64,000 nucleotides of DNA from Candidatus Hopanoidivoransaceae bacterium. Lineage in GTDB: Bacteria > Actinomycetota > Acidimicrobiia > Acidimicrobiales > Hopanoidiivorantaceae. Where the stretch lies: contig OZ241989.1 of the NCBI GenBank assembly GCA_965204495.1, positions 1,641,214 through 1,705,213 of the forward strand. Reading direction: 5' to 3'. Position 1 is the stretch's first letter. Each line of letters begins with the position of its first letter. This document shows positions 52,101 through 64,000 of the stretch, piece after piece. Below the pieces are notes generated by a model that was not told the origin of the DNA, did no database searches, and saw only the letters and a program-made list of their open reading frames with translations. A program made the translations under genes and the position numbers.

Positions 52101-55100
52101 TCGTCAGCTTCCAGCCTCTCCAGCGCAGTCAAATTCTGTATCTCGCTAGGCAAAGTCCCATGCACTATCGTGAATTGGCCCCCTACCGTACTCCTGGTGG
52201 CACTTATCACGAAATCGGTCACACGCCCGCCCGTCACCGTGATACCGATCCAATTCTGAACCAGCCTGTCCGAAGCCGTGCCCGTGCCCCACTCGACAGA
52301 AGCATCCCCCCACTCGCGAAACGCGTGAAACTCGGCCAAATCCCGGTTCGCTTCAAACCCGGCGAAATGATTCTGGATAGCCACCAGAGTCATGCAATCC
52401 TCAGCCAGATCGTTGTTAGCCCCCGTGACTCTCGGATTAGTCGTGAGATTCACGAAAGTCCCGTCCGTGCAACCCGCATTGCTCAAAAGCGGTATAGCCG
52501 TGCCCGACACCGCCCTGCTCACAGACAAAGTAATAGTGCCGGTAAGAGTGTCGCCCCCGCTAGAGGTATAAGGCACCGAAATCGCAGCCGTGCCCGCACC
52601 AGAAACAGCGGTGATGGGAACAACGCAGCCGCTTTGCGTGCCGAGGCTTATCAAAGCAGACGACTCCGCAATAGCCCCGCAAGAAATCGCATAATCGCCG
52701 TCCGCCGCGTAGCTGCTCGCATCCAGCACCAGCACCCGCCCCGCCAGCACCGACAAACTCCCCGCGCCTGTCGTGGGCGGAGCCGTGAAAACAATATCCG
52801 AAAGCGGGCGAATCAGCACAGAAATCACCCCGTCCGCAGAACCGCCCCTGCTGGAGCCATACGGCACAGTGAAACCAGCCGTGCCGCCCGCCCCCGCCCT
52901 AGCAGTAGCAGTAAACGAACAGCCGTTCCCGCCAGAATCGCGCACCACGCTCTGCCACAAAGACGAAACGCTCTCAGCATCACCGCAAGAAATCGTGTAG
53001 CTGCCGTCTGAAGCGTAAGCCGAAGCGTCAATCACGATGCTCTTCGTAGCCTCCACATTCAAACCCGAAGGAAAGCCCGCCACAGGAGCAGTAAAGACGA
53101 TATTAGCAGCCGCGCCCACAACCACAGGCACCACCCCGCTGACCGTAGCCCCCGTCTCAGAAGTATAAGGCACCGTGAAACTAGCCGCGCCCAGCGACGA
53201 GCCAGCAGTAACCCTGAACTCGCAAGTATCGCCCACACGCGCCACCGACGCGATCCTGGCGGTATTAGCAGTCGAATCGCCGCAAGTGACCCCCCAGAAA
53301 CCGCCATCAGTAGCATAGCTAGAAACATCAAACACCAAAGTCCCGCCCGCGCCGATAGCCAGAGCAGAAGGAGCCGTGAAAACCAGATTCCGAGCAGGCC
53401 CCACGCTCACAGGAATCACAGCCTGCCGAGTGTCGCCGCCAGCAGAAGAGTAAGTGATAGTGAAACTAGCCGAACCCGAAGCAGTGCCCGAAGAAGTGGT
53501 GGCGGTGAAAGTGCAAGAACTGCCCGTATGAGCAACCGAAGCCAGATTGCTGGTGAGCGCGCTGGCATCCGAACAAGTCAAAGCATAACTGCCGTCCGCC
53601 GCGAAACCGCCAGCATCAATCTCCAAAGTCCTGCTGCCAGCCTCAATGCGCAGATCGGCAGGAGCGGTATAGGCGATAATGCTGTCAGTGCCGATGTTTA
53701 TAGTGAAAGTGCCTGTAACAGTCGCGCTGCCCGTGGAAGTGAATTCCACAGAAAAAGTAGTATCGCCCTGATAGGACTGGGCGAGAGCGTTTTCGGGATC
53801 AACAGTGAAAGAACACCCATCGCCGGAAGTGCTGCGGGTTACTGTCATCCTGACGGCATCCACGCCTGTGGCATCAGCGCAGGTCACCGTGTATACGCCG
53901 GTTTCTGTGATCTGATCCAAGGCGTCAATCACCAGCGTGTAGTTCCGCCCAACCGTCAGAGTAGGCAGCGCAGTGAAAGCGAGAGTGCTGTCGGGGCCGA
54001 TATTGACAGTGAAAGTGCCTGTAGTCGTGGCACCGCCCGAAGAGGTGAAAGGCACAGAGAAAGTAGTGTCGCCTTGGTCGGCCGGCATCAAGGTGTCTAC
54101 GGGATCTATCGTGAAAGAACAGCTGCTGCCAGTGTGGGTAACAGTCATCTTCGTGGTATCCACTCCGGTGGCATCGCCGCAGGAGAAGGTGAAGCTGCCG
54201 TCGGTCGCGTAGCTGGAAGCGACAAAAGTCCGAGTGCGGTTCCGGGCCACTGTCAGAGTTCCCGGGTCGCTTAAGACAATGTTGGAGTCCGCGCCGATGT
54301 TTATTGTGAAAGTGCCGGTAGTGGTCGTTCCGCCTGTGGTAGTGAAGAGCACAGAGAAAGTCGTATCGCCTTGGTTGGCCGGCGTCAAGGTGTCTACAGG
54401 ATCAACGGTGAAAGAACAGCCATCGCCTGAAGTGCTGCGAGTGACAGTCATCTTGGTGGCATCCACGCCTGTGGGGTCAGCGCAGGTAACCGTGTGCCCG
54501 GTGTTCTCAGAGACATGATCCAAAGCGTCAATAACCAGCGTGTAGTTCCGCCCCACTGTCAGAGTAGACGGAGCAGTGAAAGAGAGATTGGAATCGGGGC
54601 CGATATTGACAGTAACCGTGCCCGTAGTGCTATGCCCGCCGCCTGAGGTGTAAGGAATGGTGAAAGTAGTATCGCCTTGGTTGGCCGGCGCCAGAGTGTC
54701 AACGGGGTCTATCGTGAAATTGCAGCTGCTGCCAGTGTGCGTAACAGCCAGCTTGTTGGCATCCACCCCGGTAGCGTCACCGCAGGTAACCGTGTAGGCG
54801 GGGTCCTCAGTCACATAGCCCAAAGCGTCTATCGCCAAAGTCTGATTCCGCCCGACCGTCAAAGTTCCAGGAGCGGTGTAAGCGACAGTAGATTCAGGGC
54901 CTACTTCAATGCTGATAGTGCCGTTCTCGGTGTCGCCGCCAGTTGAAGTGTAAGGCACCACGAAGCTAGCCGCGCCCTGAACTTGCTTGGGCGTTACAGT
55001 AAACACGCAGCCGCTGCGCGACACCGACATCAGCTCTGTGGTGTCAATGCTGGTGGCGTCCCCGCAAGTGATCGTGAAGTCGCTGTTAGCCTCAGTCGCG

Positions 55101-55927
55101 TAGTCCAACGCGTTGATCGTCTGCGTTCGGTTCGTGCCCACCTTCAACCCAGAAGGCGCGGTGAAGGTGATATTTGAAGCAGTGATCACACGCACAGTAA
55201 CAGTGCCCGTGTGGGTGTCGCCCCCGCTAGAGGTATAAGGAATCGAAATATTGGCGGTGCCCGTGGTGGAGCCGGCATTTACAGTAACATCGCAGCCCTG
55301 CTGATTGGAAAGGCTTATCAGGGCGGACGACTCGGTGATAGTCCCGCAAGTAATCGTGTAGCCGCCGGTGGAAGGACTGCTGTCAGAAGCATAAGTGTCC
55401 ATGCTGAGATTAAGCGAACCGCCGGCTTGGATAGTCGGGGCAGGCGAAGGCGCATTGAAAGTAATATCAGAGTTTCGAACGCAAAGTCGCCAAGTGCCGA
55501 AATCCCTCGTGCCACCACCTTGATGACCCCTCACCTCTCGGCCGCTGACTGCTAGATTTTCGCAGCCAACAGAGGCTGCAGTTTTGGCAGTTACCGTGAC
55601 TCTACAGCGGTTGATAGATACCGTAAACCTGGAAGTTGAAGGAACACTAACCGAACACTGAACATGCCAGTCTTGACCAGGAAAGTTTCTAGCATTAGAG
55701 CTGGTAGCGGGCACATCAACAGTTCTGCTTCCCCCTGGTGCTAATGTAAAACCACCGGCCCAACTGCCTCCGACGTATCCTGCCGCAGGCTGAGACACAG
55801 CCACCGAAACAGCAAATAGCAAAGCCGCGAACAAAGCCGCCGACACGAGCGAAGCGACAACCTTGCGAAGAGCCCGCCGTGCCAGCCGCGCATCACACTG
55901 GGGGGGGGTCTTACGCAGCGACTTCAT
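37199..55927 (-). CDS. Giant (6,242 aa) secreted/surface repeat protein: ~55 two-Cys ~97-aa modules + internal plant-type LRR block + Pro/Thr linker + unassigned C-terminal domain
   Basis: A single uninterrupted ORF of 18,729 nt. It has an N-terminal hydrophobic signal/anchor (VVASLVSAALFAALLFAVSVAVS). The module consensus read by eye is FTAP..L.VGRNRT..IDA..Y......YTI(S/T)C(G/A)DATG.....L.SV.R....C.FT(I/V).P.......G..TF.VPYTS.GG....G..TV.IGP.S.I. Confidence 0.85.
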   Translation of the reverse strand: MKSLRKTPPQCDARLARRALRKVVASLVSAALFAALLFAVSVAVSQPAAGYVGGSWAGGFTLAPGGSRTVDVPATSSNARNFPGQDWHVQCSVSVPSTSRFTVSINRCRVTVTAKTAASVGCENLAVSGREVRGHQGGGTRDFGTWRLCVRNSDITFNAPSPAPTIQAGGSLNLSMDTYASDSSPSTGGYTITCGTITESSALISLSNQQGCDVTVNAGSTTGTANISIPYTSSGGDTHTGTVTVRVITASNITFTAPSGLKVGTNRTQTINALDYATEANSDFTITCGDATSIDTTELMSVSRSGCVFTVTPKQVQGAASFVVPYTSTGGDTENGTISIEVGPESTVAYTAPGTLTVGRNQTLAIDALGYVTEDPAYTVTCGDATGVDANKLAVTHTGSSCNFTIDPVDTLAPANQGDTTFTIPYTSGGGHSTTGTVTVNIGPDSNLSFTAPSTLTVGRNYTLVIDALDHVSENTGHTVTCADPTGVDATKMTVTRSTSGDGCSFTVDPVDTLTPANQGDTTFSVLFTTTGGTTTTGTFTINIGADSNIVLSDPGTLTVARNRTRTFVASSYATDGSFTFSCGDATGVDTTKMTVTHTGSSCSFTIDPVDTLMPADQGDTTFSVPFTSSGGATTTGTFTVNIGPDSTLAFTALPTLTVGRNYTLVIDALDQITETGVYTVTCADATGVDAVRMTVTRSTSGDGCSFTVDPENALAQSYQGDTTFSVEFTSTGSATVTGTFTINIGTDSIIAYTAPADLRIEAGSRTLEIDAGGFAADGSYALTCSDASALTSNLASVAHTGSSCTFTATTSSGTASGSASFTITYSSAGGDTRQAVIPVSVGPARNLVFTAPSALAIGAGGTLVFDVSSYATDGGFWGVTCGDSTANTARIASVARVGDTCEFRVTAGSSLGAASFTVPYTSETGATVSGVVPVVVGAAANIVFTAPVAGFPSGLNVEATKSIVIDASAYASDGSYTISCGDAESVSSLWQSVVRDSGGNGCSFTATARAGAGGTAGFTVPYGSSRGGSADGVISVLIRPLSDIVFTAPPTTGAGSLSVLAGRVLVLDASSYAADGDYAISCGAIAESSALISLGTQSGCVVPITAVSGAGTAAISVPYTSSGGDTLTGTITLSVSRAVSGTAIPLLSNAGCTDGTFVNLTTNPRVTGANNDLAEDCMTLVAIQNHFAGFEANRDLAEFHAFREWGDASVEWGTGTASDRLVQNWIGITVTGGRVTDFVISATRSTVGGQFTIVHGTLPSEIQNLTALERLEADDHMLSGNIPSWLGSMSALNDVNLSDNNFSGPIPSELGNLSSLQFLSLHRNELSGSIPSQLGSLSNLRQLNLDSNQLTGSIPSQLGSLSSTAFTHLNLSGNRLSGSIPSQLTSLTAMRNLLLSNNLLTGSIPSGIGSLTSLVTLDLEGNRLSGSVPAGVSSLTNLFRLDLSNNQFTGAIPAAVGNLVTLNPAGNRFTGVRQVYICGNYFTGALPTGLQQTASSQYVLQDYPISEGFNPVACQDAMAVPASGDIVFAPPLVVPVQAGGESVYVNAASYFTGSDYAATCADATGPAIDDSKLTITRSGCSYYVTAPAPSPISRAFENVTFNVPYTQVSAGATQVNGVVTVRILPASSIAFNAPQNLFVSASSTVVVDASGAATDGPYAITCGDATGVDSTKFSSVVRSTSGNGCMFTIASTASTGDGTFTVPYSSSGGATGTGTFTVNVNNIVYTAPTDLSVVAGRSIEITASSYVTDGANTFTCADATNIDSTKITSVVRNNCVFTVTTAAAAAGENVAITVPVTSSGGATRSIVIPMSVTPVSDIVFTAPAAVKIGAGNTKTIDVGAYAADGSYTISCGFQQSTRHARLTSVAVNGCRFTLAAGSAQGAATLVVDYTSTGGDTQSGTVNLSIGPPSSVSFTAPAVPAVGRNRTLVINALDYVRENTAYAVSCSDAFDISTLPNIGFGLIRYRMSVARSTSGDGCAFTVDPLNTLPSNRWGNAIFRVVFTSEGGSSTTGTFTVNIRGDVAILFTDPGALAVPRNRILRIDATDHVEDGANTITCADATGFDSDKMAVTRRGCVYTVNPVNSLAANLLGETTFSAMFTSSGGSSTTGTFTVDIGPDTNIRTTNIPGTLFFTNSVKVNLSRFATDGDYEIFCTSVSATAGTISNRAANSCVFDYSPSFLGRFNVSFRSAGGSTTTASINVAQSLGTYLRSFSFPAQSVAAGRTIEIEASRHISLSTANTYFCFEPTDVDGKISVVLRGCRYIITAGSRQGAASFNVNFSITSGEVRSAAVAVNVGPASSIVFNAPAGLQVGRNRTLAIDATDYATDSSYTITCGDATGVDSTKLTSVSRNGCVFTVDPINSLVAGSQGDTSFTVPFTSSGGDTATGTFTVNIGPDSTITYTAPGALEIGRNFTLVIDASDYVSEISGSGYTIACSDAAGVAANRMAVARTANTCEYTVAPVGNSEANAADRLAPALQGDTTFAITFASTGGHTITRTLTINIGPDSDPMFTAPATNPAVGASLTRAVDVSSYATDGNYTISCGTISTTDADITLGTQTGCSVMITSVATTPQTADITIPYTSSGGGSTTGTLTLDVGVASNIVFTAPTGLKVGINRTQTIDASDYAADGGNTISCGTATNVDTTRLASVVRDTSGNGCGYTITPISTLTPAQQGTANFTVPYTSSGGDTQNGVIAIEVGPASNIVYTSPGTLSVARNLTLEIDASGYAADNAAYTISCGDATGVASARLAVTHTGSSCDFTIDPVDALAPGDQGTTTFTIPFTSDGGATGTGTVTVNIGPDSALTFTAPGTFTLGRNRTLVIDASAAISGENAAYTVSCADATGADATRMTVTRSTSGDGCSFTVDPVDTLAVGSQGDTTFSVAFSSTGGATATGTFTVNIGPDSTITANIPPATGAGRLQVARNLTLEIDASDYVAETSGSGYTISCSDARSIHSRLTSVARTASTCTYTIDPVNSATSGTATFVVTFTSTGGHSIVRTITVNVGPNSAITFTAPPTSGANRLLVGRNRTLAVDAGSYASETSGSGYTITCGDAVSIDTARLASVTHTGSSCSFTVTPVSSLSSSLQATNATFTVPYASSGGATADGIISVKVGPDSTITYNAPTLARGSNLRTFTIDASDYVSETSGSGYTISCGTATSVDTTEITSVTRLSNSCRYRIVLNGTQGSTGFTVPYTSTGGHAISRAVQITVGAASAIVFSAPASNPAVAASRTLTLDVGSYAADGSYTISCGTITESSALISLGNQTQGSCSIPIIAGTSTGTAAISVPYISSGGATLTRSITIDVGGASNISFTAPSDLKVGINRTQTINALDYASDSGYTITCGTATSVDTTRLTSVVRDASGNGCGYTITPISTLTQSQQGAASFTVPLTSDGGDTENAVFSIAVGPASTITFTPPSALLVPKNRTLVVDAAPYAVEANPTNYAISCGDATSIDTVELQSVTRTANTCTFTITPKNVAGSASFTVPYTSEGGHSVNGAIPVTVGTDSTITYSSPGTLTVGRNRTLTIDASGYVEEIASSGHTITCSDASGVDNTKLTSVTRTANTCSYTITPITTLTPALQGDTTFSITFTSSGGHEITRTITVNVGPDSTIVFTPPASNPAIAASRTRTIDVSSYAADGSYTISCGAITESSALISLGSQTGCSIPVTSGSSMGTATISIPYRSSGGHTLTSSLSIDVGAASSIVFTAPTGLKVGTNRTQTINALDYASDGGYTITCGTATNTGANVPTSGTVALASVVRDSSGNGCGYTITPTATQGTATFTIPYTSAGGDTSSENISITVGPPSTIVYSSPGTLRVGRNQTLEINASGYVSDNSAYTITCADATGVIATRMAVSRTANSCTFTIDPVDALAPANQGTTTFTIPFTSDGGHSITRTITVNIGPDSNLTFTAPSTFTLGRNRTLVIDALAAISGENAAYTVSCADATGVDANKMTVTRSSSGNGCSFTVDPVDTLATGSQGDATFSVPYTSTGGASASGTFTVNIGPDSTITANIPPATGANRLLVARNLTLEIDASDYVTEASSGYTISCSDARSIHSRLTSVARTANTCRYTIDPNNFAFPGAATFVVTFASTGGHSIDRTITVNVGANSAITFTPPPTTGANRLLVGRNRALVVNAGSYARETIGSGYTITCGDATSIDTTRLASVTHTGSSCSFTVTPVSSLSSTLQATNATFTVPYSSTGGATANGTISVKVGPDSTITYNAPTLERGNNLRTFTIDASDYVSETASSGYTISCGTATSVDTTEITSVTRLSNSCRYRIVLNGTQGSTGFTVPYTSTGGHAISRAVQITVGAASSIVFSAPSSNPAVAASRTLTLDVSSYATDGSYTISCGTITEFSALISLGAQTGCSIPITAATSTGTAFISVPYISSGGATTTRSISIDVGVASNIQFTAPSDLKVGINRTQTINALDYATDSGYTITCGTATSIDTTKLTSVARDSSGNGCGYTITPISTLTQSQQGSANFTVPLTSDGGDTENAVFSITVGPASTITFTPPSPALSVAKNRTITVDVSGYAVEANPTNYAISCGDATSIDTVELQSVTHTGRSCTFTINPKNVAGSASFTVPYTSEGGHSVAGAISVTVGPDSNIVYTPPTGLRVARNRTLEIDATDHFTESSTYTVTCGDATGIDNTRLTSVARTANTCTFTVDPVDTLAAGLQGNTTFTVPLSSTGGHARNALFTVNVGPDSNIVFAAPTGLKVGRNRTLAINALAAVTENPAYTVTCADATGVSANRMTVTRSSTGSRCVFTVDPVDTLATGLQGNTTFAVAFTSTGGATASGTFTVNIGPDSTITYNAPTGLLVGRNRTLTIDASGYVSESDSNNTITCGDATAIHSRLTSVARTANSCSYTIDPNNFATVGTATFAIAFTSDGGHTRTETISVEVGPDSNIRFTAPPTSGPNRLRIGRNLTLSIDALDYVNENAAYTVTCGDATGVDAARLTVTHTGSSCDFTIDPVDTLAQSLQGNTSFTIPYTSDGGATATGRITVNIGPDSAITFTAPTGLKIGRNRTLVIDALAAVSGENAAYTVSCADATGVDANRMTVTRSSSGSRCSFTVDPVDTLAVGSQGDTTFVVAFSSTGGATASGTFTVNIGPDSAIVYTAPAGLQVGRNRTLSVDLSNAATDGSYTVTCGDATNVHSRLSSVTRPDAQASPCVFAAAPRTTASLGTATFRVPFTSDGGATSTGTVSIAISQPSTIVFTAPDPALKIGINRTRTIDALDYVRDGNYTITCLDATGVDSTKLTSVTRSSSGNGCGYTINPISSLTQSQQGDATFTVPYRSAGGHVLNQEFTIGVGPASTIVYTAPVGANALTVGHNRTLTIDASSYATDGSYTISCGDARSIHARIDHITRNGCSFTITPVSGMTGAATFTIPYSSDGGHTRDGQVSVTIGAASNIVYSAPSGIVIPVSTARTIDVGSYAADGSYAISCGDATGVNASRLASVTHTGSSCSFEITAAANQGATSFVVPYRSAGGAALSGTISLSVGPASSIVFTAPSGLDVHVGETLLVHANDYASDGPYSLQCADATNRSASLTSVVRTANTCDFTITPGSSTGTGTFNVPYTSSGGATHTGTISVNISPQSTITFTAPTGLSVAAGRQITVDASTAADTGYTVSCGDATAVNPRIASVSRTGCSYAVRAGSIAGSASFTIPFTSTGGATLNSQIAITIGPRSSIAFTAPTGLSVQIGSTLTIDASDYAADSAYTITCGDATGVPSVFASVARTANTCNFVVTPGTSTGSGSFTVPYSSSGGATRNGSITVAVTPTSSIVFAPPPISGPDRLRIGAGNTRTISLASYATDGPYSITCGNATATEPAKLTDIHRNGCRYTITAAATAAQGNTTFTLTYTSSGGNTNNASFTINIGPASDIVYTAPADITLQANSAQGIDLSSYATDGTGNDAYTIGCLDATDIDPEISSVTRNGCVYTIRAGSTPGEADFHITYTSTGGDTHLATVHITITPAPVEPEERPAGPIQPIDPPARRPTPPPPTTTTTTTIPDPSRPTTTLEPDQPGPRWNTLTAQQGGTTPGQIRQAFNLGSTQTIYTWNTARQTWTRATRSSQAIPAGTRVSFRTEEAVTNREMRTSNLGGGTTRMRLTTGWSTLSIPQGITRTDDTDFLLDPTLTDCRNQQGIIAIASYSTRSRRWSISLPCHPTAQRRLTTGENAPYRPLMSIAPADTTYIFTRTRQPLTIRWNEDTQTYQVFQSIFTR
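51470..52500 (-). other. LRR block inside the giant ORF: LRRNT-like cap plus ~9-10 plant-specific-type 24-residue LRRs
   Basis: Approximate residues 1150-1485. The sequence reads ...NWIGITVTGGRVTDFVIS... then LTALERLEADDHMLSGNIPSWLGS / MSALNDVNLSDNNFSGPIPSELGN / LSSLQFLSLHRNELSGSIPSQLGS / LSNLRQLNLDSNQLTGSIPSQLGS, and so on. Confidence 0.8.
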
Positions 55928-56050
55928 TTTGACCTCACGCCGTGCCAGCCGCGCATCGCACGGGGGGGGGTCGCAGACGGCGATTTCATGCCAGCCTCAA
56001 GCCGCGCCAGCCGCGCATCGCACGGGGGGGGGGTGTCGTAGATGACTTTT
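55870..56050 (-). repeat. Triplicated ~62-nt start/leader unit of the giant gene, each copy with a poly-C (minus strand) tract: C9 (55900-55908), C9 (55962-55970), C10 (56024-56033)
   Basis: Minus-strand reading gives three units. Unit 1 is ATGAAGTCGCTGCGTAAGA-C9-AGTGTGATGCGCGGCTGGCACGGCGG. Unit 2 is ATGAAATCGCCGTCTGCGA-C9-GTGCGATGCGCGGCTGGCACGGCGTGAGGTCAAAATGA. Unit 3 is AAAAGTCATCTACGACA-C10-GTGCGATGCGCGGCTGGCGCGGC. Confidence 0.9.
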
Positions 56051-56079
56051 TCCTATAGGGGATTAATCTCATGTAAGGC

Positions 56080-56108
56080 ATTATAGCAATCAGAAGTATG
56101 TTTGACAC
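56080..56108 (-). promoter_or_regulatory. Candidate sigma-70-type promoter for the giant gene (GTGTCA-17 nt-TATAAT)
   Basis: Minus-strand TATAAT lies at 56085-56080 and GTGTCA at 56108-56103, in the only AT-rich stretch upstream of the leader repeats. This is sequence pattern only. Confidence 0.4.
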
Positions 56109-56170
56109 AGCATGACAAACAAAAAAATTGTGAGATTTTTACAGGTCAAGAATCCCCCCCCGCCATATCG

Positions 56171-56354
56171 CCAGCCGCCGACCCTAGCCCTACCCAGCCG
56201 CCGACCCTAGCCCTACCCAGCCGCCGTGCCTAGCCCTACCCAGCCGCCGTGCCTAGCCCTAGCCAGCCGCCGAGCCTCGCCCTAGCTAGCCGCCGAGCCT
56301 CGCCCTAGCTAGCCGCCGAGCCTCGCCCTAGCTAGCCGCCGAGCCTCGCCCTAG
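56171..56354 (+). repeat. 23-bp tandem array x8 (ccagccgccgagcctcgccctag family) with stepwise variant gradient
   Basis: The units, read directly, are 2x ccagccgccgaccctagccctac, ccagccgccgtgcctagccctac, ccagccgccgtgcctagccctag, ccagccgccgagcctcgccctag and 3x ctagccgccgagcctcgccctag. Confidence 0.9.
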
Positions 56355-56599
56355 CTAAGCGGCTGCGCTCCACAAGATGATCCGGGAGCTTCCCCAGCAG
56401 CGCAGCAGCTTCCATGCCAGTGTGGATGTGCGGCGCATCGGCTTGAAACAGCGCAGAAGACGCCTTCAGTTTCGCTTTCGGCGAGCGTGTGTTTTCTGCA
56501 GGTAACCTGCAAGAGTTCCCTAGAGGGTAGAGTTGCGGGGTGACGCTGACACGGCATCTGGTCTGCTGTCTTGTGGCTGAACCGCATAGTCAACAGCGA
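56355..56599 (+). repeat. Island scaffold element, full copy I: modules M1 (56357-56421), M2 (56422-56478), M3 (56479-56530), M4 (56535-56599)
   Basis: The same modules recur in whole or in part at 59025-59116 (M4'), 59623-59712 (23-mer + M1), 60127-60183 (M3), ~61429-61586 (diverged M2-M3), 62288-62586 (23-mer-like + M1-M3) and 63448-63572 (M3-M4). Confidence 0.85.
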
Positions 56600-56925
56600 A
56601 GCGGGCGGGCATATGACTGCCGAGTGCTGCTCAGAATTCTAGAAGGCTGTATTAGGGTTTTGCTGTTTCAGACTTGACAATCTCTCTTTTATGTGCTAAA
56701 GTGATCATGTGAAGAAAATGTGCCACAGCAAAATAGAGGAGAAGTTCCTCTTTCTGACCCGCAGCAGAGCCAATCTGCTGTGTCTGGCTTGCAGCATGGT
56801 GTGGAAGTTGAAGCAAGAAGTATCAACGAAGCAGTGCCGAGGGGTTGCCACGCAATTGACAGTTGTGGTAGAGATAACTGCCAGTGTTTGTATATTTGTA
56901 CAAAGATGTCTACAGAAAGGTTCGG

Positions 56926-58764
56926 ATGATGACTAGACTGCAATTTGACATTACTCCGTTTCTTGAACGAGAGGAGGGTCAGACATTTGAACGCAAATCG
57001 CTGTTTGAGGGCAAGCCGGGAAGCAAAAGCTCTCGGGATCGCAGAGTTATTCGCGATCAGATCGCCAGGTGGGTTGCTGGGTTTGCCAACGCTGACGGCG
57101 GCGTATTGATTCTGGGAATTGAAGACGATTTCTCTATTACTGGGCATGATCTAAGACCTGCCGACTTAAATACTCTTCTCAAAGTACCTGAGGATCGCTT
57201 AGATCCGGCACAAGAAAAAGGGTTTGTGATAAATATAGGTGAGTACGAACTCATTGTTTTTGATGTGCGAGCTTCAGATACTGAAGTAATGGTGATTGGC
57301 GACGGTTTCCCTTTGCGCATTGGTGACACAACTACGGAAGTGTCAGTTGAAGAAATTCGTTCAAGTAAGTTTTCCAGTATGTCTGAAAGCTGGTCAAGTC
57401 GCTCTTCATCTGGTTTGTTAGAGGATTTGGATGAAGAACTTCTGGGAGAAGCCAAAAAATCAGCTGGAAAAGAAAGTTGGACTGATGAAGAGTATCTGTT
57501 GCGTAGCAGTATGGCTCACAGAAGAGGACGACAAGTGATACTAAGAAATGCAGCAGAGTTGTTATTTAATCCATATGGCGGGAGTCACACAAACGCTGGT
57601 ATTCGAATTTTCCAGGTTGTTGGGACTGAACTACTGAGCGGAACAGAATACAATGCGAAAGAAATTGATCGTATTGAAGGGAACCTTCCCACGATTGTAG
57701 AAGAAGCAAGTTCAAGAATTTTGAATTTGCTTAAATCCTCAACGCCAATAATGGGTGGGAAATTTCGAGAAGTGCCTGAATATCCTTATTTTGCTTGGCA
57801 AGAAGCACTTGTCAATGCCGTCCTCCATAGAGATTATGCTGTTGAAGGGCAGTGCATAGAAATTCATTTATACAATGATCGTATCGAAATAACAAACCCT
57901 GGTGGGCTAGTTAAAGATGTTGATTTCGAAAAACTGATAAATTTGGAACGTGTTCACCGCAGTCGCAATTCTCTTATTGCCAAAGCAATGACTGATTTAG
58001 GTATAGTTCGCGACCAGGGTGAAGGAATTCCCCGTATGTTTTCTGAAATGGAGGATGCATTTCTCCCGAAACCGATAATAGAAACAAGTAATTTAGAATT
58101 TAAAGTCACTTTGAGGAATACTCCCACTTTAACCGCAGCTGACAAAAAATTTATTTCCCGACTAGGAAATTCACAATTTTCTGATGTAGAATTTAGAGCT
58201 TTGTTGCAAGCTCATCGCTATGGAAAGGTGGATAACGCATATTTGAGAAACCGATGTGGCCTTGATACTCTGAAATCAAGCAAACTTTTGAGCGGACTTT
58301 GTGATCAAAAATTTCTTAAGCTTCACCCACACGGACCCAATAGCTACTATACTCTCTCTGATTCTCTAGTTTCGCAAAACTATACAAATAATCTACCGCA
58401 GGAGAACGACGACAGAAATATGTCCAAAGCAGACAATGTTGCTTCAGATTCTGGTGAGACTCCCTTTAATGAAAGCAAACTTTTTGAGTCTCTCAGGGGT
58501 GACATAGACAATCTTGGCAAACGCCCAAGACGAGAAAAGCTGCGTCCGATAATCCACAAATTATGCTCACAGAATAGATGGATGACTTTAAATGAATTAT
58601 CTTCAATTTTGGGATACAGCCGAGGCGGGAATTTGAGAGATCACTTAAATCAAATGATAGATGAAGGTCAGATTGAACGGCGCTTTCCTCACAACCCCAA
58701 ACACCCTAAACAAGCATATCGCGCTACAAACACATTCTATGAAGATCCTAAGCAGGATTCATAG
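56926..58764 (+). CDS. AlbA_2 (Schlafen-like DNA-binding) + HATPase_c_4-type ATPase protein with C-terminal wHTH-like region
   Basis: Motifs EGQTFERKS...IARWVAGFANADGGVLILGIEDD and EALVNAVLHRDY are present. I placed the start at ATGATG 56926 (AAAGG 6 nt upstream) rather than the GTG at 56884. The gene is visibly AT-richer than the rest of the window. Confidence 0.7.
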   Translation: MMTRLQFDITPFLEREEGQTFERKSLFEGKPGSKSSRDRRVIRDQIARWVAGFANADGGVLILGIEDDFSITGHDLRPADLNTLLKVPEDRLDPAQEKGFVINIGEYELIVFDVRASDTEVMVIGDGFPLRIGDTTTEVSVEEIRSSKFSSMSESWSSRSSSGLLEDLDEELLGEAKKSAGKESWTDEEYLLRSSMAHRRGRQVILRNAAELLFNPYGGSHTNAGIRIFQVVGTELLSGTEYNAKEIDRIEGNLPTIVEEASSRILNLLKSSTPIMGGKFREVPEYPYFAWQEALVNAVLHRDYAVEGQCIEIHLYNDRIEITNPGGLVKDVDFEKLINLERVHRSRNSLIAKAMTDLGIVRDQGEGIPRMFSEMEDAFLPKPIIETSNLEFKVTLRNTPTLTAADKKFISRLGNSQFSDVEFRALLQAHRYGKVDNAYLRNRCGLDTLKSSKLLSGLCDQKFLKLHPHGPNSYYTLSDSLVSQNYTNNLPQENDDRNMSKADNVASDSGETPFNESKLFESLRGDIDNLGKRPRREKLRPIIHKLCSQNRWMTLNELSSILGYSRGGNLRDHLNQMIDEGQIERRFPHNPKHPKQAYRATNTFYEDPKQDS

Positions 58765-58808
58765 ATACAACCCATAATCCCCAATAGTCGTGATATTTGG
58801 AGAGTCCT

Positions 58809-59033
58809 ATGTCTGAAAGATTATTGGCTCGTATCCCCGAAGCTGCTGGTCGTATCCCCGAAGCTGCTGGTCGTATCCCCGATGCTGTTGGTCGTATCCC
58901 CGATGCTGTTGGTCGTATCCCCGATGCTGTTGGTCGTATCCCCGATGCTGTTGGTCGTATCCCCGATGCTGCTGGTCGTATCCCCGAAGCTGCATTGACA
59001 CCCCAAATGCAAAATATTTCTATAGCGGGGTGA
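58809..59033 (+). CDS. Possible 74-aa heptad-repeat micro-protein (MSERLLA-[RIPEAAG/RIPDAVG]x8-LTPQMQNISIAG)
   Basis: ATG at 58809 is preceded by GGAGAG 4 nt upstream. The body is the 21-bp tandem array, and the stop TGA lies inside module M4'. The coding status is unresolved because the opposite strand is also open. Confidence 0.35.
   Translation: MSERLLARIPEAAGRIPEAAGRIPDAVGRIPDAVGRIPDAVGRIPDAVGRIPDAAGRIPEAALTPQMQNISIAG
58827..58994. repeat. 21-bp tandem array x8 (ggtcgtatccccgaWgctgYt)
   Basis: The units were read directly. The outer units carry gaagctgct and the central four gatgctgtt. It is the same unit as the 16-copy array at 63573-63908. Confidence 0.95.
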
Positions 59034-59116
59034 CGCTGACACGGCATCTGGTCTATGCCGCTCCTTGCGGCTCGTCTGCGGCTTTGCTGGTGAGACGTCA
59101 GAGCCTCAACAGCGAA
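59025..59116 (+). repeat. Module M4' (conserved M4 ends gcggggtgacgctgacacggcatctggtct ... caacagcgaag with a different internal core)
   Basis: Direct comparison with 56535-56601 and 63505-63569. Confidence 0.75.
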
Positions 59117-59120
59117 GAGT

Positions 59121-59282
59121 TCAGAAAGAAGATTTTTTGGACTCCACTCTGAACGCCTGAACGAGTTCAGGGTCGCTCGTGTCGATCTGGGCGTTGCGGA
59201 GGACTTCCTCAACGGTGACCTCTTGGTTTTTCTTCGCTCTAGTGGCTCTGGGCCGGGAAGTGGCTTTGGATGCTTTCTTCAT
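59121..59282 (-). CDS. Small basic hypothetical protein (53 aa)
   Basis: Not in the track in this frame. ATG at 59282-59280 is preceded by AGAGAGGAAACAACCA (a strong SD). The product is MKKASKATSRPRATRAKKNQEVTVEEVLRNAQIDTSDPELVQAFRVESKKSSF, with stop TGA at 59123-59121. Confidence 0.5.
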   Translation of the reverse strand: MKKASKATSRPRATRAKKNQEVTVEEVLRNAQIDTSDPELVQAFRVESKKSSF

Positions 59283-59622
59283 TGGTTGTTTCCTCTCTTG
59301 TTATAGGAGACAATACTAGCATAATTATGACCAACGGCGTGAAAATCGCAAAAAGTGTGATATAGCGACGGGTGTGCCCAAGAATTTCGTCGCGCTCGTC
59401 TTCTTCCGCCACTCTCCTTACGCGCCAAAATCTCGCCTTGTATCGCATCTGAAGCCCAGCGCGAACTAGTGTAGCAGGACCTGCTGGGTTGCGGCGCGCT
59501 TTTCGGCGGTGGGTTTCGCTGGTTGCGGTTGTGTGGCTGTCCACGGCAGACTAGCCGCTGTCGGGAGCCACCGCAGGGTTTCGGCTTGTGAGCATCTGCC
59601 GCTTGCGCTGCCAGAAACACCG

Positions 59623-59712
59623 CCAGCCGCCGAGCCTCGCCCTAGCCAAGCGGCTGCGCTCCACAAGATGATCCGGGAGCTTCCCCAGCAGCGCAGCAGC
59701 TTCCATGCCAGT
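59623..59712 (+). repeat. One 23-mer unit + module M1
   Basis: ccagccgccgagcctcgccctag + ccaagcggctgcgctccacaagatgatccgggagcttccccagcagcgcagcagcttccatgccagt. Homology to copy I stops abruptly after ...gccagt. Confidence 0.85.
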
Positions 59713-59852
59713 AGCGTGCGAAGAAAAGGTTGCTTTTCCACTGAAAATGTGATATGGTTCTAGACATGAACAGATGCGTAGCCGTGAAGAGCGGAGCCAC
59801 CCGCCGCGTAGCGCGACGCAGCTACGCAGACGGTGCTAAAAGGAGCATCTCA

Positions 59853-60014
59853 ATGAAAATAAAAAGAAAAAAGGCATCGTCATCAGAACAGGCACCACTT
59901 CCGCGCGAGTTTCGTGCTGAAGACATTGTGCAAATCCCTGTTGGGGGCACAGGCAAGCCTTCACCCGATTCGCCTTTATACAACAAGTGGAAGGAGCAGA
60001 ACGGCAAAAAGTAG
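59853..60014 (+). CDS. Small hypothetical protein (53 aa)
   Basis: ATG at 59853 is preceded by AAAAGGAG 7 nt upstream. The product is MKIKRKKASSSEQAPLPREFRAEDIVQIPVGGTGKPSPDSPLYNKWKEQNGKK. The track ORF 59754-60014 is the same frame with an unlikely upstream start. Confidence 0.5.
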   Translation: MKIKRKKASSSEQAPLPREFRAEDIVQIPVGGTGKPSPDSPLYNKWKEQNGKK

Positions 60015-60126
60015 TTCTGCTCTGCTTCACAACCTGAAACCGAGACAGCAGGCACGCATCTGACGTGCCCGTATCACTCTGCTTGTCTTGGGAATTCAAG
60101 CAATTCACTTGCCGAGAACACCTGTT

Positions 60127-60183
60127 CGCCGAGCGTGTGTTCTCAGCAGGCGACCTGCAAGAGTTTCCTAGAGGCTAAGTTTG
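60127..60183 (+). repeat. Module M3 (solo copy)
   Basis: cgccgagcgtgtgttctcagcaggcgacctgcaagagtttcctagaggctaagttt. Confidence 0.8.
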
Positions 60184-60215
60184 CGTTTTGGGTTTTGTAG
60201 CTGGGTGTAGCAGTC

Positions 60216-60392
60216 ATGGCAAATAAATCTTCGAGTCCGCTGAATTTCGCGCCGTCTACTATTTTCACGGGCGATAATCTGCCTGTGATGCGTGGGATGA
60301 ATTCTGAGAGTGTGGATTTGATCTATTTGGATCTGCCTTTCAATAGTAAAGCTAATTACGCGGCACCTAAGCGGCTGCCAAGCAGCTTATGA
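60216..60392 (+). pseudogene. 5' fragment (58 codons) of an N6/N4 DNA methyltransferase
   Basis: MANKSSSPLNFAPSTIFTGDNLPVMRGMNSESVDLIYLDLPFNSKANYAAPKRLPSSL*. The N-terminal pattern of beta-class amino-MTases is present, with the DPPF motif degraded to DLPF. The reading frame ends about 50 aa into what should be a protein of more than 250 aa. Confidence 0.65.
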
Positions 60393-60814
60393 AGCAGGCG
60401 GACAAACAAGCGACGTAGCCGATTGAGTAGCAATGGACCAAGCTGCCATCCGAAGCCTATGGCTTGATCGGTCAACGCGTCCTTCATGTCTTTGTAGTGT
60501 TCGTTGGTTTCCCATGCGACAGTGACATGCGACGGCACAGGGTGACCGTCGCATTTGGGGTAGATATTGAACTGATGGAATGTTCCGGCTGTTACTGCAA
60601 CGACCCCTACAATTTGCGATTTGTCTGTTTCGGTTGTGCGCCGATAGTTCTTCAGAGCTTCTTTTGGTGTGTCTACAGTTGAGAGGTACAGAGACAACTT
60701 TTTCTCTTTCCTAGCGGAAAAAACTGTCTCCCTCAGATCGCTGATATTACCAGATGGACAATCCCATGTTTTAACTATCCGGTAGAGTCTTGCGTCGCCG
60801 TGGAGTTCTTCCAT
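60356..60814 (-). CDS. Hypothetical protein (152 aa), distal gene of an overlapping pair
   Basis: ORF-track entry. AAAGG lies upstream of the ATG. No family was recognised. Confidence 0.5.
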   Translation of the reverse strand: MEELHGDARLYRIVKTWDCPSGNISDLRETVFSARKEKKLSLYLSTVDTPKEALKNYRRTTETDKSQIVGVVAVTAGTFHQFNIYPKCDGHPVPSHVTVAWETNEHYKDMKDALTDQAIGFGWQLGPLLLNRLRRLFVRLLHKLLGSRLGAA

Positions 60815-61188
60815 TCCGATACCTTTCGAGAAAGCGTCTTCCAGCCTTCGCCTTTCAACGTATGCTGACCTTTTCCATGTGGCGCTAAGTCGTGAAGTAT
60901 CCTATGCTCTGCTTGTCTGGAAGGCAGATGCACATCTACACGCAAAGAATCAGAAGGATTCCGCCACACCAAAAGAATGTTGCCATCCTCTGCTGGCTGC
61001 ACCAGCGGGCAACCTATGTCGTTCTTGTCCAAGATGTTAACAGTGAAGTCTTCCAAAAAGCCTTCCAGTCCTTCCAGTCCGACAGGGTGGACGCCCCCAT
61101 CCTGATTCGGATCCGCGTCAATATAGCGTTGCAGGTTTTCTGTCATGTCGCGGACACGGTTGTCGTCTAGGTCTTTACCGGTAGTCAT
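60775..61188 (-). CDS. Hypothetical acidic protein (137 aa), proximal gene of an overlapping pair
   Basis: I placed the start at ATG 61188-61186, preceded by GAAAGAGAGGAAAAA (a strong SD). The track start 61224 has no SD. Confidence 0.5.
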   Translation of the reverse strand: MTTGKDLDDNRVRDMTENLQRYIDADPNQDGGVHPVGLEGLEGFLEDFTVNILDKNDIGCPLVQPAEDGNILLVWRNPSDSLRVDVHLPSRQAEHRILHDLAPHGKGQHTLKGEGWKTLSRKVSEWKNSTATQDSTG

Positions 61189-61428
61189 TTTTTCCTCTCT
61201 TTCAGTGTTTTGTTGCGGAGTCATCTGATTCCACTATAGCCTATGTGCGATGCAGTCTCCTATCCACTAGCGGTTCCGGCTAATGTTTCTGCTCTGCTCA
61301 TGGTTCAAGTATACATTAACTTTTTCGCGTTTGCAACGCATGCACTTGAAATTTGCCAATTCAGGAAATTTCCTCATTCTGGAACCGCCCCAGCGAAAAA
61401 TCGCTATCGCAGCAGCGTCTGCCGCCTC

Positions 61429-61586
61429 CGTCGATGTGCGCTGGGGGACCACCAGCCCAGCGGCGGCAGGAAACCCGGCGGCGAGTGCGCCCGTTCGTTG
61501 AAGCCGCGAGGCCCTGCCGCGTGGATCTCCCTGCTGCTGCAAGACACCTGTCAGCTTCGGCGAGCGTGTGTTCACTGCGGGTGACC
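61429..61586 (+). repeat. Diverged M2-M3 copy
   Basis: gtcgatgtgcgctggg...cctgtcagcttcggcgagcgtgtgttcactgcgggtgacc versus gtggatgtgcggcgca...ccttcagtttcgctttcggcgagcgtgtgttttctgcaggtaacc. Confidence 0.45.
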
Positions 61587-61709
61587 TTCTGCCGTTCACC
61601 AGAACGAACAGATAAACACCAACCTGCCGCGTTCCTGCGCCAGTCTGCTATCATAGATGTCATGTCTCCAAACCTCAATCCCCTGAATCAATGAAAGAAG
61701 GTTAGCACG

Positions 61710-62288
61710 ATGGAGCCAGCAGCCGTGCAGTCGGATCTAGCAGATAGGGCAGGGGAAACATCCGCCAAAACCTCGTCCCCGACTACGGGACACAGCGCCC
61801 CTATAGTGATTCCAGAGAACAATAGCCTTCTGTCCGACGGCTGGGCAGGAGCTATGATGCTTGCCAGCGAATTCAGGCCACTGCTGGAAGAAACCGAGAT
61901 GCTTGCCAGCGAATTCGTGTCGCTGCTGGAAGAAACCGTGACCCGTGCCGGCGAATTCGTGTCGCTGCTGGAAGAAGACGCAGAGTCAGAAGAGATCCCC
62001 GCCCTAGAGCATCTGCCTGCTTTTATGGTGTCTGTCGGCATAACCTCTTCAAAGTCTTCTGTCCCTTTGCCGTATATTTTCGAAGGCGGGCACGGCAGGG
62101 TCTGTTTCACATGGCTCCGCGAAGGAAAAGGCGATTGCTACCTTTACGCGAAACTGGACAGCATGAAAGCGAAATGGGTGGAAAGCGACAACGGCGAACA
62201 CATCAGAACCGAAATTCTGGATGTTAGCTGCGGTTCAGAAGACTGGGCTTCCCTGGCCCGATATCTGCGGGCAGCCTATGCTAAATGA
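61710..62288 (+). CDS. Hypothetical protein (192 aa) with 3 x 14-aa (42-bp) internal repeat
   Basis: GAAGG lies upstream of the ATG. The repeats MLASEFRPLLEETE / MLASEFVSLLEETV / TRAGEFVSLLEEDA span 61857-61982. Confidence 0.55.
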   Translation: MEPAAVQSDLADRAGETSAKTSSPTTGHSAPIVIPENNSLLSDGWAGAMMLASEFRPLLEETEMLASEFVSLLEETVTRAGEFVSLLEEDAESEEIPALEHLPAFMVSVGITSSKSSVPLPYIFEGGHGRVCFTWLREGKGDCYLYAKLDSMKAKWVESDNGEHIRTEILDVSCGSEDWASLARYLRAAYAK

Positions 62289-62586
62289 CCCCCGCCAAGC
62301 CTAGCCCTTGCCAGACGGCTGAGCCTAGCTCTCGCCTGAGCCGCCGAGCCTAGCCCTTGTCAGACGGCTGCGCCTAGCTCTCGCCTGAGCCGCCGAGCCT
62401 CGTCCTCGCCAGACGGCTGCGCTCCACAAGATGATCCGGGAGCTTCCCCAGCAGCGCAGCAGCTTCCATGCCAGTGTGGATGTGCGGCACATCGGCTTGA
62501 AACAGCGCAGAAGACGCCTTCAGGTTCGCTTTCGGCGAGCGTGTGTTTTCTTCAGGCGACCTGCAAGGGTTTCCTAGGGGCTGAGT
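62288..62586 (+). repeat. Island scaffold element: degenerate 23-mer-like repeats (62288-62410) + M1-M2-M3
   Basis: It is near-identical to 56357-56530 apart from a few substitutions. M4 is absent. Confidence 0.85.
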
Positions 62587-62646
62587 TTATATATTAATAA
62601 ATAAAAATCTGGCAAAGATGAAGTCATAAGAAGTGACGAAAATCTT

Positions 62647-63390
62647 TTAATGTTCCAAAACATCTAAAACTGCTTCAGGGTGCACTCGCCACAAAACTTT
62701 ATGCTTCCTGTCTTTAAACACCACAGGTCTGCACCCTGCCTGTTCCCTCTGAGGTGATATTTCTATCCAACGATCAGCCTTAGCCGCAGAAGATACAGAG
62801 TTCAGAAATTCCGTATCATTTCCATTCGGCATATCATGTTTGCTGAATTGGGAACCAGCCGACGCTATCCTGCGAACTCCATCATTGAACCCCATCTGCA
62901 GCGAAAGACATAAAAGAGACTTCCAAAAATCTTGCTTTTCAGAGAGCACTCCAGCGTAGAACACCAGCATCAATGTCTCCTCGGCAGCTAAATTCGGACA
63001 GTCCTGCGCATACTCCAACAGCGCACGTTCAGGAGAAGACAGCCAAGTTCTGCTGTCTATTTGTCGCGCCGAAATTCGCAACGTTTCGCTGTCTTCACGA
63101 TGATGCCAAATGAAATAGCCGGCCGCGGTTCCCTTGTCATCCATATCCGCAGAAACGGAAAGCCCAGCTTTCATCGGCATTCCAGCCTCCAGCAAAGCGG
63201 AATCATGCGAGATTCTCCTCACGATGCTGCCATAAAACCCATCCAACCTCTCCGCGCGCGACAATCCCTGCAGAGGTGTCCACGCCAAGCCATTGCGACG
63301 CCAACTGTCGGATTTTATCGTCACATGACTATCGTTGCCTGTTTTCACCACTGTATCTGGTTGTTCTGCGAACATCTGCTTGGTGCTCAT
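62647..63390 (-). CDS. Hypothetical protein (247 aa); weak resemblance to AbiEi-type antitoxin C-terminal region
   Basis: ORF-track entry. Only the stretch WLSSPERALLEYAQD recalls the (S/T)PERTLLD motif, so the family call is tentative. Confidence 0.45.
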   Translation of the reverse strand: MSTKQMFAEQPDTVVKTGNDSHVTIKSDSWRRNGLAWTPLQGLSRAERLDGFYGSIVRRISHDSALLEAGMPMKAGLSVSADMDDKGTAAGYFIWHHREDSETLRISARQIDSRTWLSSPERALLEYAQDCPNLAAEETLMLVFYAGVLSEKQDFWKSLLCLSLQMGFNDGVRRIASAGSQFSKHDMPNGNDTEFLNSVSSAAKADRWIEISPQREQAGCRPVVFKDRKHKVLWRVHPEAVLDVLEH

Positions 63391-63447
63391 GTTTACCAGT
63401 ATAGAGTGCGTTTCCTGAAATTACAACTCTAGAATAGATTTTCCGTT

Positions 63448-63572
63448 CCGGCGAGCGTATGTTTTCTGCTGGCGACCTGCAGGGATTTCCTATAGGGTGG
63501 GGTTGCGGGGTGACGCTGGCGCGGCTTCTGGTCTGCTGTCTTGTGGCTGAACCGCATAGTCAACAGCGATTG
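63448..63572 (+). repeat. Island scaffold element: M3 + M4, joined directly to the 21-bp array
   Basis: ccggcgagcgtatgttttctgctggcgacctgcagggatttcctatagggtggggttgcggggtgacgctggcgcggcttctggtctgctgtcttgtggctgaaccgcatagtcaacagcga. Confidence 0.85.
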
Positions 63573-63908
63573 GCTCGTATCCCCGATGCTGTTGGTCGTA
63601 TCCCCGATGCTGTTGGTCGTATCCCCGATGCTGTTGGTCGTATCCCCGATGCTGTTGGTCGTATCCCCGATGCTGTTGGTCGTATCCCCGATGCTGTTGG
63701 TCGTATCCCCGATGCTGTTGGTCGTATCCCCGATGCTGTTGGTCGTATCCCCGATGCTGTTGGTCGTATCCCCGATGCTGTTGGTCGTATCCCCGATGCT
63801 GTTGGTCGTATCCCCGATGCTGTTGGTCGTATCCCCGATGCTGTTGGTCGTATCCCCGATGCTGTTGGTCGTATCCCCGATGCTGTTGGTCGTATCCCCG
63901 ATGCTGCA
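63573..63908. repeat. 21-bp tandem array x16 (ggtcgtatccccgatgctgtt), essentially perfect
   Basis: 336 bp = 16 x 21. The first unit starts gct and the last ends gca. It is followed by the same tail (ttgacaccYcaaatgcaaaatatttctata) as the 8-copy array. Confidence 0.95.
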
Positions 63909-64000
63909 TTGACACCTCAAATGCAAAATATTTCTATATTTGCAAAGACTTTATCAGGTTTTCGGTAAAACAGCAACCCTTTCTTCCAGCACCCCGAAGG

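Follow-up and report, generated by a model that had tools for sequence, protein, structure and literature searches.

The window, by which we mean the whole stretch of 64,000 nucleotides that was analysed, derives from a sponge-associated bacterium of the Acidimicrobiales. Up to 55.9 kb it has a GC content of about 59 % and carries metabolic genes together with a gene for a 6242-aa LRR/repeat protein. From 55.9 kb on, the GC content is 49-52 % and the genes are either of the defence type or of unknown function. This part of the window (55.9-64 kb) is a strain-variable, lower-GC island that is bordered by the giant LRR gene on one side and, in relatives, by cysS. A related contig, L002, joins the same island to cysS, and its cysS protein is 92 % identical to that of an uncultured Acidimicrobiales chromosome and 77 % identical to that of Ca. 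Hopanoidivorans cymbastelae. The names of related contigs (PANK22-1_SAMN...) presumably refer to a sponge-holobiont project. No island DNA was found in the cysS flanks of 80 related Acidimicrobiia.

Among the island genes are two overlapping genes for proteins of 149 and 152 aa on the minus strand (60356-61224) that match components A and B of the PADLOC candidate PDC-M32, and the same gene pair is also present in L002, L003 and L004. A 58-aa ORF (60216-60392), located 30 nt past a copy of the M3 module described below, encodes an N-terminal piece of an N6/N4 DNA methyltransferase, from the region of the DLIYLDLPFNS motif, and is a truncated remnant of a restriction-modification system. The islands of relatives add a PIN toxin.

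Tandem arrays are abundant in this lineage, with 34 TRF rows in the 64 kb of the window and 29 in 20.7 kb of contig L006, and many of them are intragenic with periods of 15, 18, 24 and 30. Other arrays in the island have periods of 23, 49 and 62, and their copy numbers also vary between strains. The 5' end of the giant LRR gene lies within 2.5 copies of a 62/63-bp repeat (55875-56050, minus strand; 14800-14975 in L088), each copy of which contains a poly-C tract and two of which also contain an ATG. The tracts read C10, C9 and C9 in the window versus C11, C9 and C9 in L088, and the upstream ATG shares the reading frame of the gene in L088 (giving 6263 aa) but not in the window. A strong promoter-like site (GTGTCA-17-TATAAT) is located just upstream. 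The arrangement has the look of a switch by which slipped-strand mispairing would phase-vary a giant surface protein.

Two arrays of a 21-bp unit and their surroundings

A search with GGTCGTATCCCCGATGCTGTT that allowed three mismatches revealed 16 head-to-tail 21-bp units at 63573-63908 on the plus strand, of which all but the terminal two are exact. The first unit has one mismatch and starts with GCT (for GGT), and the last has two and ends with GCA (for GTT). TRF reports the same array at 63570-63906 with period 21, 16.0 copies, 99 % matches and 0 indels, and thus the array described in the first-pass annotation is real, with the exact number 16 taken from the assembly. Matches to GGTCGTATCCCCGATGCTGTT in the 64-kb window number 24, both arrays included, compared with 0.01 expected in shuffles, and the 24 occurrences of the 12-nt core ATCCCCGAWGCT are likewise confined to the two arrays. 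The units abut directly and lack unique spacers of the CRISPR type. All six reading frames are open through the array, which justifies the earlier caution that ORF calls across it are individually unreliable. RNA from the plus strand (63573-63700) is predicted to undergo G-U-rich self-pairing (-36.6 kcal/mol for 6 units, z = -2.0), with nothing comparable for the minus strand (z = +1.3), and we do not consider this pairing to be meaningful.

Upstream of this array, all on the plus strand, are a copy of the M3 module (63447-63504), a local variant of M4a (63505-63534) that has three mismatches to 56535-56564 and is orthologous to positions 3866-3895 of L086, and M4b (63535-63569), which is identical at 35/35 positions to 56565-56599 and is joined straight to the array. 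In the ancestral block, M4b forms the left end of the Schlafen cassette. Downstream is a tail, TTGACACCTCAAATGCAAAATATTTCTATA (63909-63940, plus strand), that is common to the copy at 59 kb and can form a weak hairpin (-5 to -7 kcal/mol, z about -1). The tail is identical to 58989-59024 at 35/36 positions, and homology with the other copies stops past TTTCTATA. As was noted previously, there is no Shine-Dalgarno (SD) sequence or ATG directly before the array, and the sole in-frame ATG is at 63459, within M3, where it results from a G>A substitution that no other copy shows.

The other array, on the plus strand at 58827-58994, comprises eight units of the types EAA, EAA, DAV (four times), DAA and EAA, such that units 1, 2, 7 and 8 are variant, in agreement with the variant end units reported earlier. 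This array is contained in a small ORF of 74 aa (58809-59033, plus strand) that reads MSERLLA(RIPxAxG)8...LTPQMQNISIAG and begins about 45 nt past the stop codon of the upstream gene. An SD sequence, GGAGAG (58799-58804), is located 4 nt before its ATG; this plus-strand SD and ATG are conserved at the Schlafen-side copy, unlike at the 63.5-kb copy. The upstream gene (56926-58764, plus strand), which always precedes the Schlafen-side array, is of the defence type and codes for a Schlafen/AlbA_2, HATPase_c_4 and winged-helix (wHTH) protein. Its product matches a pAgo-fusion model of PADLOC and, among the PHROG families, one annotated as 'DNA helicase', and its winged-helix matches (HTH_34 and Fic-like_C) both fall below the Pfam cut-offs. 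A promoter-like site with a TG element (TTGACA-17-TAAAGT; 56674-56702, plus strand) is present upstream of the gene and is conserved in L088 and L087. A search of JGI contigs for distant Schlafen-like loci yielded a single contig, which is cut off before the 3' end.

The Schlafen-like gene, the small ORF with its array and the tail (58995-59024, plus strand) form one block at 56565-59024 that has a copy of the 30-bp M4a sequence at either side. The left copy of this direct repeat, GCGGGGTGACGCTGACACGGCATCTGGTCT, is at 56535-56564, and the right copy (M4a', 59025-59054), which is 100 % identical to it, follows straight after the tail, both on the plus strand; an identical M4a repeat also flanks the complete block in L088. 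A larger segment of 3.3 kb (56422-59712), which includes M2 to M4, the Schlafen-like gene, the 8-unit array and a 53-aa gene, is absent from L002 (11579-11668). It is bounded by 91-nt direct repeats of M0/M1 that are 98 % identical, and the difference is consistent with insertion or deletion via homologous recombination.

The M modules recognised in the first-pass annotation proved to be real repeats with discrete edges. On its minus strand M1 encodes a sequence ending in ...EAAALLGKLPDHLVERSRLARARLGG and a stop codon, which is the true C-terminus of a conserved protein family of 127-275 aa found in marine and sponge Acidimicrobiia. The module duplicates the final 27 codons of this family (...LPDHLVERSRLARxRLGG and stop), for which no Pfam match was obtained. 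M0, M1 or the conserved gene is located at 56170-56421, 59622-59712 and 62292-62475 of the window, at 8123-8695 of L002 and at 10001-10790 of L088. The M0 array of 23-mers repeats in tandem the final 23 nt of the conserved gene, stop codon included, and the 49-bp array likewise derives from tandem duplication of the gene's end. Intact copies of the gene carry repeats of the M0 type past their stop codon, with a single unit in L002 and the 49-bp array in L088. The A/G/S/E-rich linker of the family also varies via tandem repeats.

We considered whether M1 to M4 constitute one conserved ORF and rejected this reading: M2 to M4 do not continue the M1 ORF, and the frames differ among copies. The minus-strand ORF across M1 to M4 gave no homologue in a protein search. 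A structured RNA or an attC site was likewise rejected, as the folding z-scores (+0.25 and -1.22) are no better than those of shuffles. Inverted repeats of 25 nt or more and attC-like palindromes are absent from 55500-64000, Rfam at gathering thresholds reports only tRNA-Met in the whole window, and at E<=1 there is no Rfam match in 55.8-64 kb. The M modules are probably recombination-scrambled intergenic and gene-end DNA.

Variation of the arrays between strains

The Schlafen-side array was compared in the window, L086, L087 and L088, and an array in another context was available from L004. All four strains exhibit the same order, namely the Schlafen-like gene, 45 nt, SD GGAGAG, ATG, MSERLLA(R/H)IPEA..., the array and the tail. 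The copy number at this orthologous locus is eight in the window versus six in each of the other three strains, with three contigs of the copy-number comparison apparently being short-read assemblies, which may under-report units. The unit types also differ. L088 has EAA, DAA, DAV (three times) and DAA, L086 has RIPEAGG, and L087 alternates between HIPEAAG and EIPEAAG with a two-unit periodicity. The array of L004 has five units, follows straight after M3-M4 and is joined to another gene's 3' end. Given that length and unit types vary among strains that are 89-98 % identical, the array is a genuine VNTR.

The arrays of L086, L087 and L004 carry GAA only, and therefore GAA is likely the ancestral form. 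Variable positions of the unit are 1-6, 15 and 20, and the core ATCCCCGA(A/T)GCTG is invariant across alleles. This invariance could reflect a constraint on either a peptide motif (IP-E/D-A) or a DNA site, although the clustering of the variable positions is marginal by a rough estimate (roughly P = 0.05). All relatives are close (at least 89 % nucleotide identity), and conservation tests are therefore weak.

L088, a long-read contig of 1.78 Mb that was located via the conserved gene, is 97.6 % identical to the window across 9.3 kb (window 50150-59467). It covers the whole island (9.6 kb) from the giant gene to cysS, and its sole array is the Schlafen-side one. Since this island is complete and has only one array, the 16-unit array is a strain-specific paralogue. 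L086 has a 247-aa gene, M3 and M4a whose orthologues lie at 62628-63540 of the window (96.8 % identity), and there M4a is followed by M0/M1 and the conserved gene, with no array.

These data bear out the earlier view that the array is homogenised and labile in length, with units numbering 8, 6, 6 and 6 at the Schlafen-side locus, 5 in L004 and 16 in the paralogue. An invariant length together with absence of the array from all other scaffold copies had been named as the pattern that would argue for a local neutral minisatellite. The length is not invariant, and the array is indeed absent from the other scaffold copies and from the second site in the near-identical strain. This combination fits a local, labile minisatellite better than a working part of the M scaffold. 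The minus-strand GAGGTG-N3-ATG that had been regarded as retained is present at 63.9 kb, but it is not a retained feature, because the copy at 59.0 kb reads GGGGTG-N3-ATG and the ATG is ACG in L086, L004 and L087.

Searches beyond these strains identified few sequences of relevance. Protein searches with the plus-frame ORF found three true relatives (P0001, P0030 and P0091), and apart from three true relatives the 902 phmmer matches are almost all ORFs of other 21-nt minisatellites. Hundreds of heptad 'proteins' in the databases (GRWPLAA, GKLPEAA, GRRPQAA; P0013-P0148) apparently are ORFs across the 21-nt minisatellites of unrelated organisms. One further match, P0002/L005 (RIPDDAGRITDAAG...), is borderline (E = 8e-3) and lies in low-complexity DNA that has no relation to the array; it was put down to chance, as were seven M3 matches in viral contigs that show no wider similarity. 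Scans with the 21-mer gave 0 matches in JGI metagenome contigs and 0 in viral contigs, and an exact scan for M3 gave 0 matches in the GTDB representative genomes. Nothing on these elements was found in the literature.

Origin of the 16-unit copy and competing explanations

We consider it probable that the 21-bp array is a slippage-driven VNTR minisatellite that has been duplicated by ectopic recombination and homogenised. Its direct repeats are free of spacers and have a unit within the range of about 10-100 bp. The flanks of the two paralogous copies have diverged (M4 95 %, M3 81 %, tail 35/36) in comparison with 14 identical units, such that homogenisation within the array exceeds divergence of the flanks, a pattern of concerted evolution. 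All units at 63.5 kb, including the terminal ones, are of the derived GAT...GTT type. This uniformity indicates that the array expanded and was homogenised once the copy existed, or else that conversion took place between the arrays.

The ancestral place of the array would be the 3' flank of the Schlafen/AlbA_2-HATPase_c_4 gene, within a short and perhaps untranslated ORF. The pattern suggests that replication slippage and unequal or ectopic recombination alter the copy number and homogenise the units, and that ectopic recombination acts both between the two arrays and between copies of the modules. The copy at 63.5 kb would then consist of M4b, array and tail, set beside another M3/M4a scaffold copy, with the Schlafen gene and the start of the ORF missing either through deletion or because the ends alone were copied. 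Subsequently, the array would have grown to 16 units of the derived type. The local M3/M4a together with the perfectly matching M4b and the nearly identical tail indicate that the two ends of the Schlafen block were copied recently and in this strain only. The order of M4, array and tail at 63.5 kb, compared with that of array, tail and M4' at 59 kb, had led to the proposal of a circularly permuted or tandem unit of M4, array and tail. A better account is that the 63.5-kb element duplicates the block without 56600-58821, such that M4b abuts the array, and the order at 59 kb is accounted for by the presence of M4a on both sides of the Schlafen block. Most likely, the 16-unit copy has no function of its own and is a gene-less remnant that grows and shrinks. 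To our knowledge, Actinobacteria lack MutS and MutL, and the actinobacterial NucS pathway is reported not to correct insertion/deletion loops, which would fit the richness of this lineage in tandem arrays.

Coding or protein-binding roles of the array are less likely. The array might encode a micro-protein of n heptads, (R/H/E)-I-P-(E/D)-A-(A/V/G)-G, that is co-expressed with the Schlafen-like gene and would serve, for example, as its partner, as a decoy or as an antitoxin-like factor, with variation in copies and units as a source of diversity; in that case the 16-unit copy would represent either a pseudogene or a longer form initiated at ATG 63459. Such a micro-protein, which we consider unlikely, would explain why the SD sequence and the N-terminus MSERLLA are kept at constant spacing in four strains (with the same start in L086, L087 and L088), why the period is a multiple of 3 with the frame kept across alleles and across the L004 fusion, and why I-P-x-A is invariant among variable neighbouring residues. 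Gene callers report the small ORF in L086, L087 and L004, but not in L088, and AF2 predicts a string of short helices with moderate local confidence (pLDDT 71) but low global confidence (pTM 0.26). However, the C-terminus that follows the repeats is unlike in all five loci, where the ORF simply runs on to the next stop; examples are ...NISIAG and stop, ...NISILINKNLAQNEVM and stop, ...TSTACVFCWRP... and ...MLDVSCGSEDW.... Furthermore, the substitutions between units and alleles are all non-synonymous in the RIPxAxG frame, with R>E and R>H being non-conservative, codon usage favours none of the six frames (CAI 0.63-0.78), and the neighbouring arrays with periods of 23, 49 and 62 cannot be coding. 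Protein searches revealed no homologue outside the strain cluster, and the repeat ORF has no Pfam, NCBIfam, PADLOC, PHROG or PDB match, given that DUF6944 is below threshold (19.6 bits versus a cut-off of 32) and the PDB matches are of low complexity. The small ORF thus appears to behave like read-through of non-coding DNA. On balance, the conserved start set against the variable C-terminus and the non-synonymous changes leaves translation of the ancestral copy as a doubtful possibility and makes a function for the 16-unit copy unlikely.

A cis-acting binding array, such as an iteron, an operator or a centromere-like element that might be bound, for example, by the winged-helix domain of the Schlafen-like protein, strikes us as improbable. 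A period of 21 bp corresponds to two turns of B-DNA, a core of 12-13 nt is invariant across alleles with variable spacers between, the adjacent gene has the weak winged-helix-type matches mentioned above, and the array persists at 63.5 kb without a coding context. Yet the array is downstream and not upstream of the Schlafen-like gene, its unit as read has no dyad symmetry, the islands of the window, L002 and L088 contain no rep, par or plasmid-type genes, and L088 manages without a second array. A phase-variable contingency repeat is also not what is found, as the array follows the Schlafen-like gene and its 21-nt unit preserves the reading frame.

Some of the junctions lie in long identical stretches and others at microhomologies. 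Breakpoints recur within TCTGGTCT/GCTG (the M4a/M4b boundary; slashes mark junctions) in five contexts and past TTTCTATA in three, and the cyclic order of the modules is the same from one gene block to the next. The recurrence is a hint of greater specificity than random illegitimate recombination would have, and together with the cyclic order it leaves room for a more specific cassette-exchange process. One form of this idea is a discrete mobile cassette that extends from M4b through the Schlafen gene and the array to the tail and recombines site-specifically at the 30-bp M4a core of a scaffold-based platform, array growth being a by-product or a requirement of recombination; it predicts a circular tail-M4b junction, TTTCTATA/GCTGTCTTGTGG, and an empty site, M3-M4a-ATGCCGCTCC. 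Although the identical 30-bp repeat at both ends of the block in the window and L088, the recurrent breakpoints, the constant module order and the strain-dependent cassette content are all in keeping with such an element, we judge it very improbable. No recombinase is encoded in the islands of the window, L002 and L088, attC-like inverted repeats are lacking, module folding does not surpass that of shuffles, and the modules are absent from the 80 related genomes and the GTDB representatives. Moreover, no right-hand M4a is present at 63.9 kb, and other junctions are scattered and microhomologous (CAAATGC/TGG in L004, ACAGCG/TGTG in L087, and a left end at 56757 in L086). Quite unlikely, too, is the broader reading that the island is an integrase-less, scaffold-based platform for defence-gene cassettes, in which the Schlafen gene, the heptad ORF and the array are one mobile cassette. 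The M0-M4 copies may then provide recombination points at M4a/M4b, at the edges of M3 and at the tail end TTTCTATA, and the array or its peptide may take part in cassette function or mobility. Finally, perfect repeats are the hardest to assemble, and a 16-copy array could in principle have been mis-expanded or mis-collapsed. We give such an artefact scarcely any credence: the same unit is arrayed in four further assemblies, made independently from related strains and including the long-read contig, the 336 bp are well below long-read length, and the flanks join uniquely on both sides.

Relation to known systems and significance

The probable VNTR minisatellite resembles, to differing extents, several known types of repeats. 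The MIRU-VNTR loci of mycobacteria (Supply et al. 1997, as summarised in PMC3184786) have units of 40-100 bp. Like these, the present arrays reside in an actinobacterial host and consist of head-to-tail repeats of tens of bp that are located between or after operon genes, with small ORFs, a strain-variable copy number and more than one locus. In contrast to MIRU-type elements, which are dispersed over tens of intergenic loci per genome, the unit is 21 bp, the two loci seen in 64 kb are both in one island, and there is no sequence similarity. Nor does the small ORF overlap the stop or start codon of a neighbour, as expected for translational coupling; it begins 45 nt past the stop and ends in variable sequence.

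The X region of staphylococcal spa comprises 24-bp coding repeats in a proven protein with conserved flanking domains. The present array shares with it a period that is a multiple of 3, variant orders that are allele-specific and a frame that is kept as copies vary, but is only putatively coding, and what follows its repeats is not conserved. Integron cassette arrays and CALINs include sedentary chromosomal integrons that store defence genes, and they resemble this island in having strain-variable small genes of unknown or defence type, a repeated element between them and a GC content below that of the genome. The island differs in its lack of attC imperfect palindromes and of IntI, in its mixed gene orientation and in a repeated element that is split at several points; no recombinase domain of an integron integrase was found in the islands of the window, L002 and L088, which together extend from the giant gene to cysS. 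Plasmid iterons and centromere-like arrays are direct repeats of about 20 bp, and the 21-bp units are similar in length and in their helix phase. Unlike iterons, these arrays are chromosomal, have no replication or partition genes nearby, and include a second array that a near-identical strain does without.

The expansion of bacterial VNTRs by slippage is already well described, and this knowledge is mostly unchanged by our findings. ORF calls across such arrays fill protein databases with artefactual repeat proteins. The two VNTR loci have distinguishable unit types and constitute a strain marker for an uncultured lineage of sponge symbionts. They also offer a base-pair view of how a defence-type block is duplicated, truncated and reshuffled between near-identical strains. 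Should the heptad ORF be a partner of the Schlafen/AlbA_2-HATPase_c_4 protein after all, it would represent a new component for a poorly understood defence-associated family.
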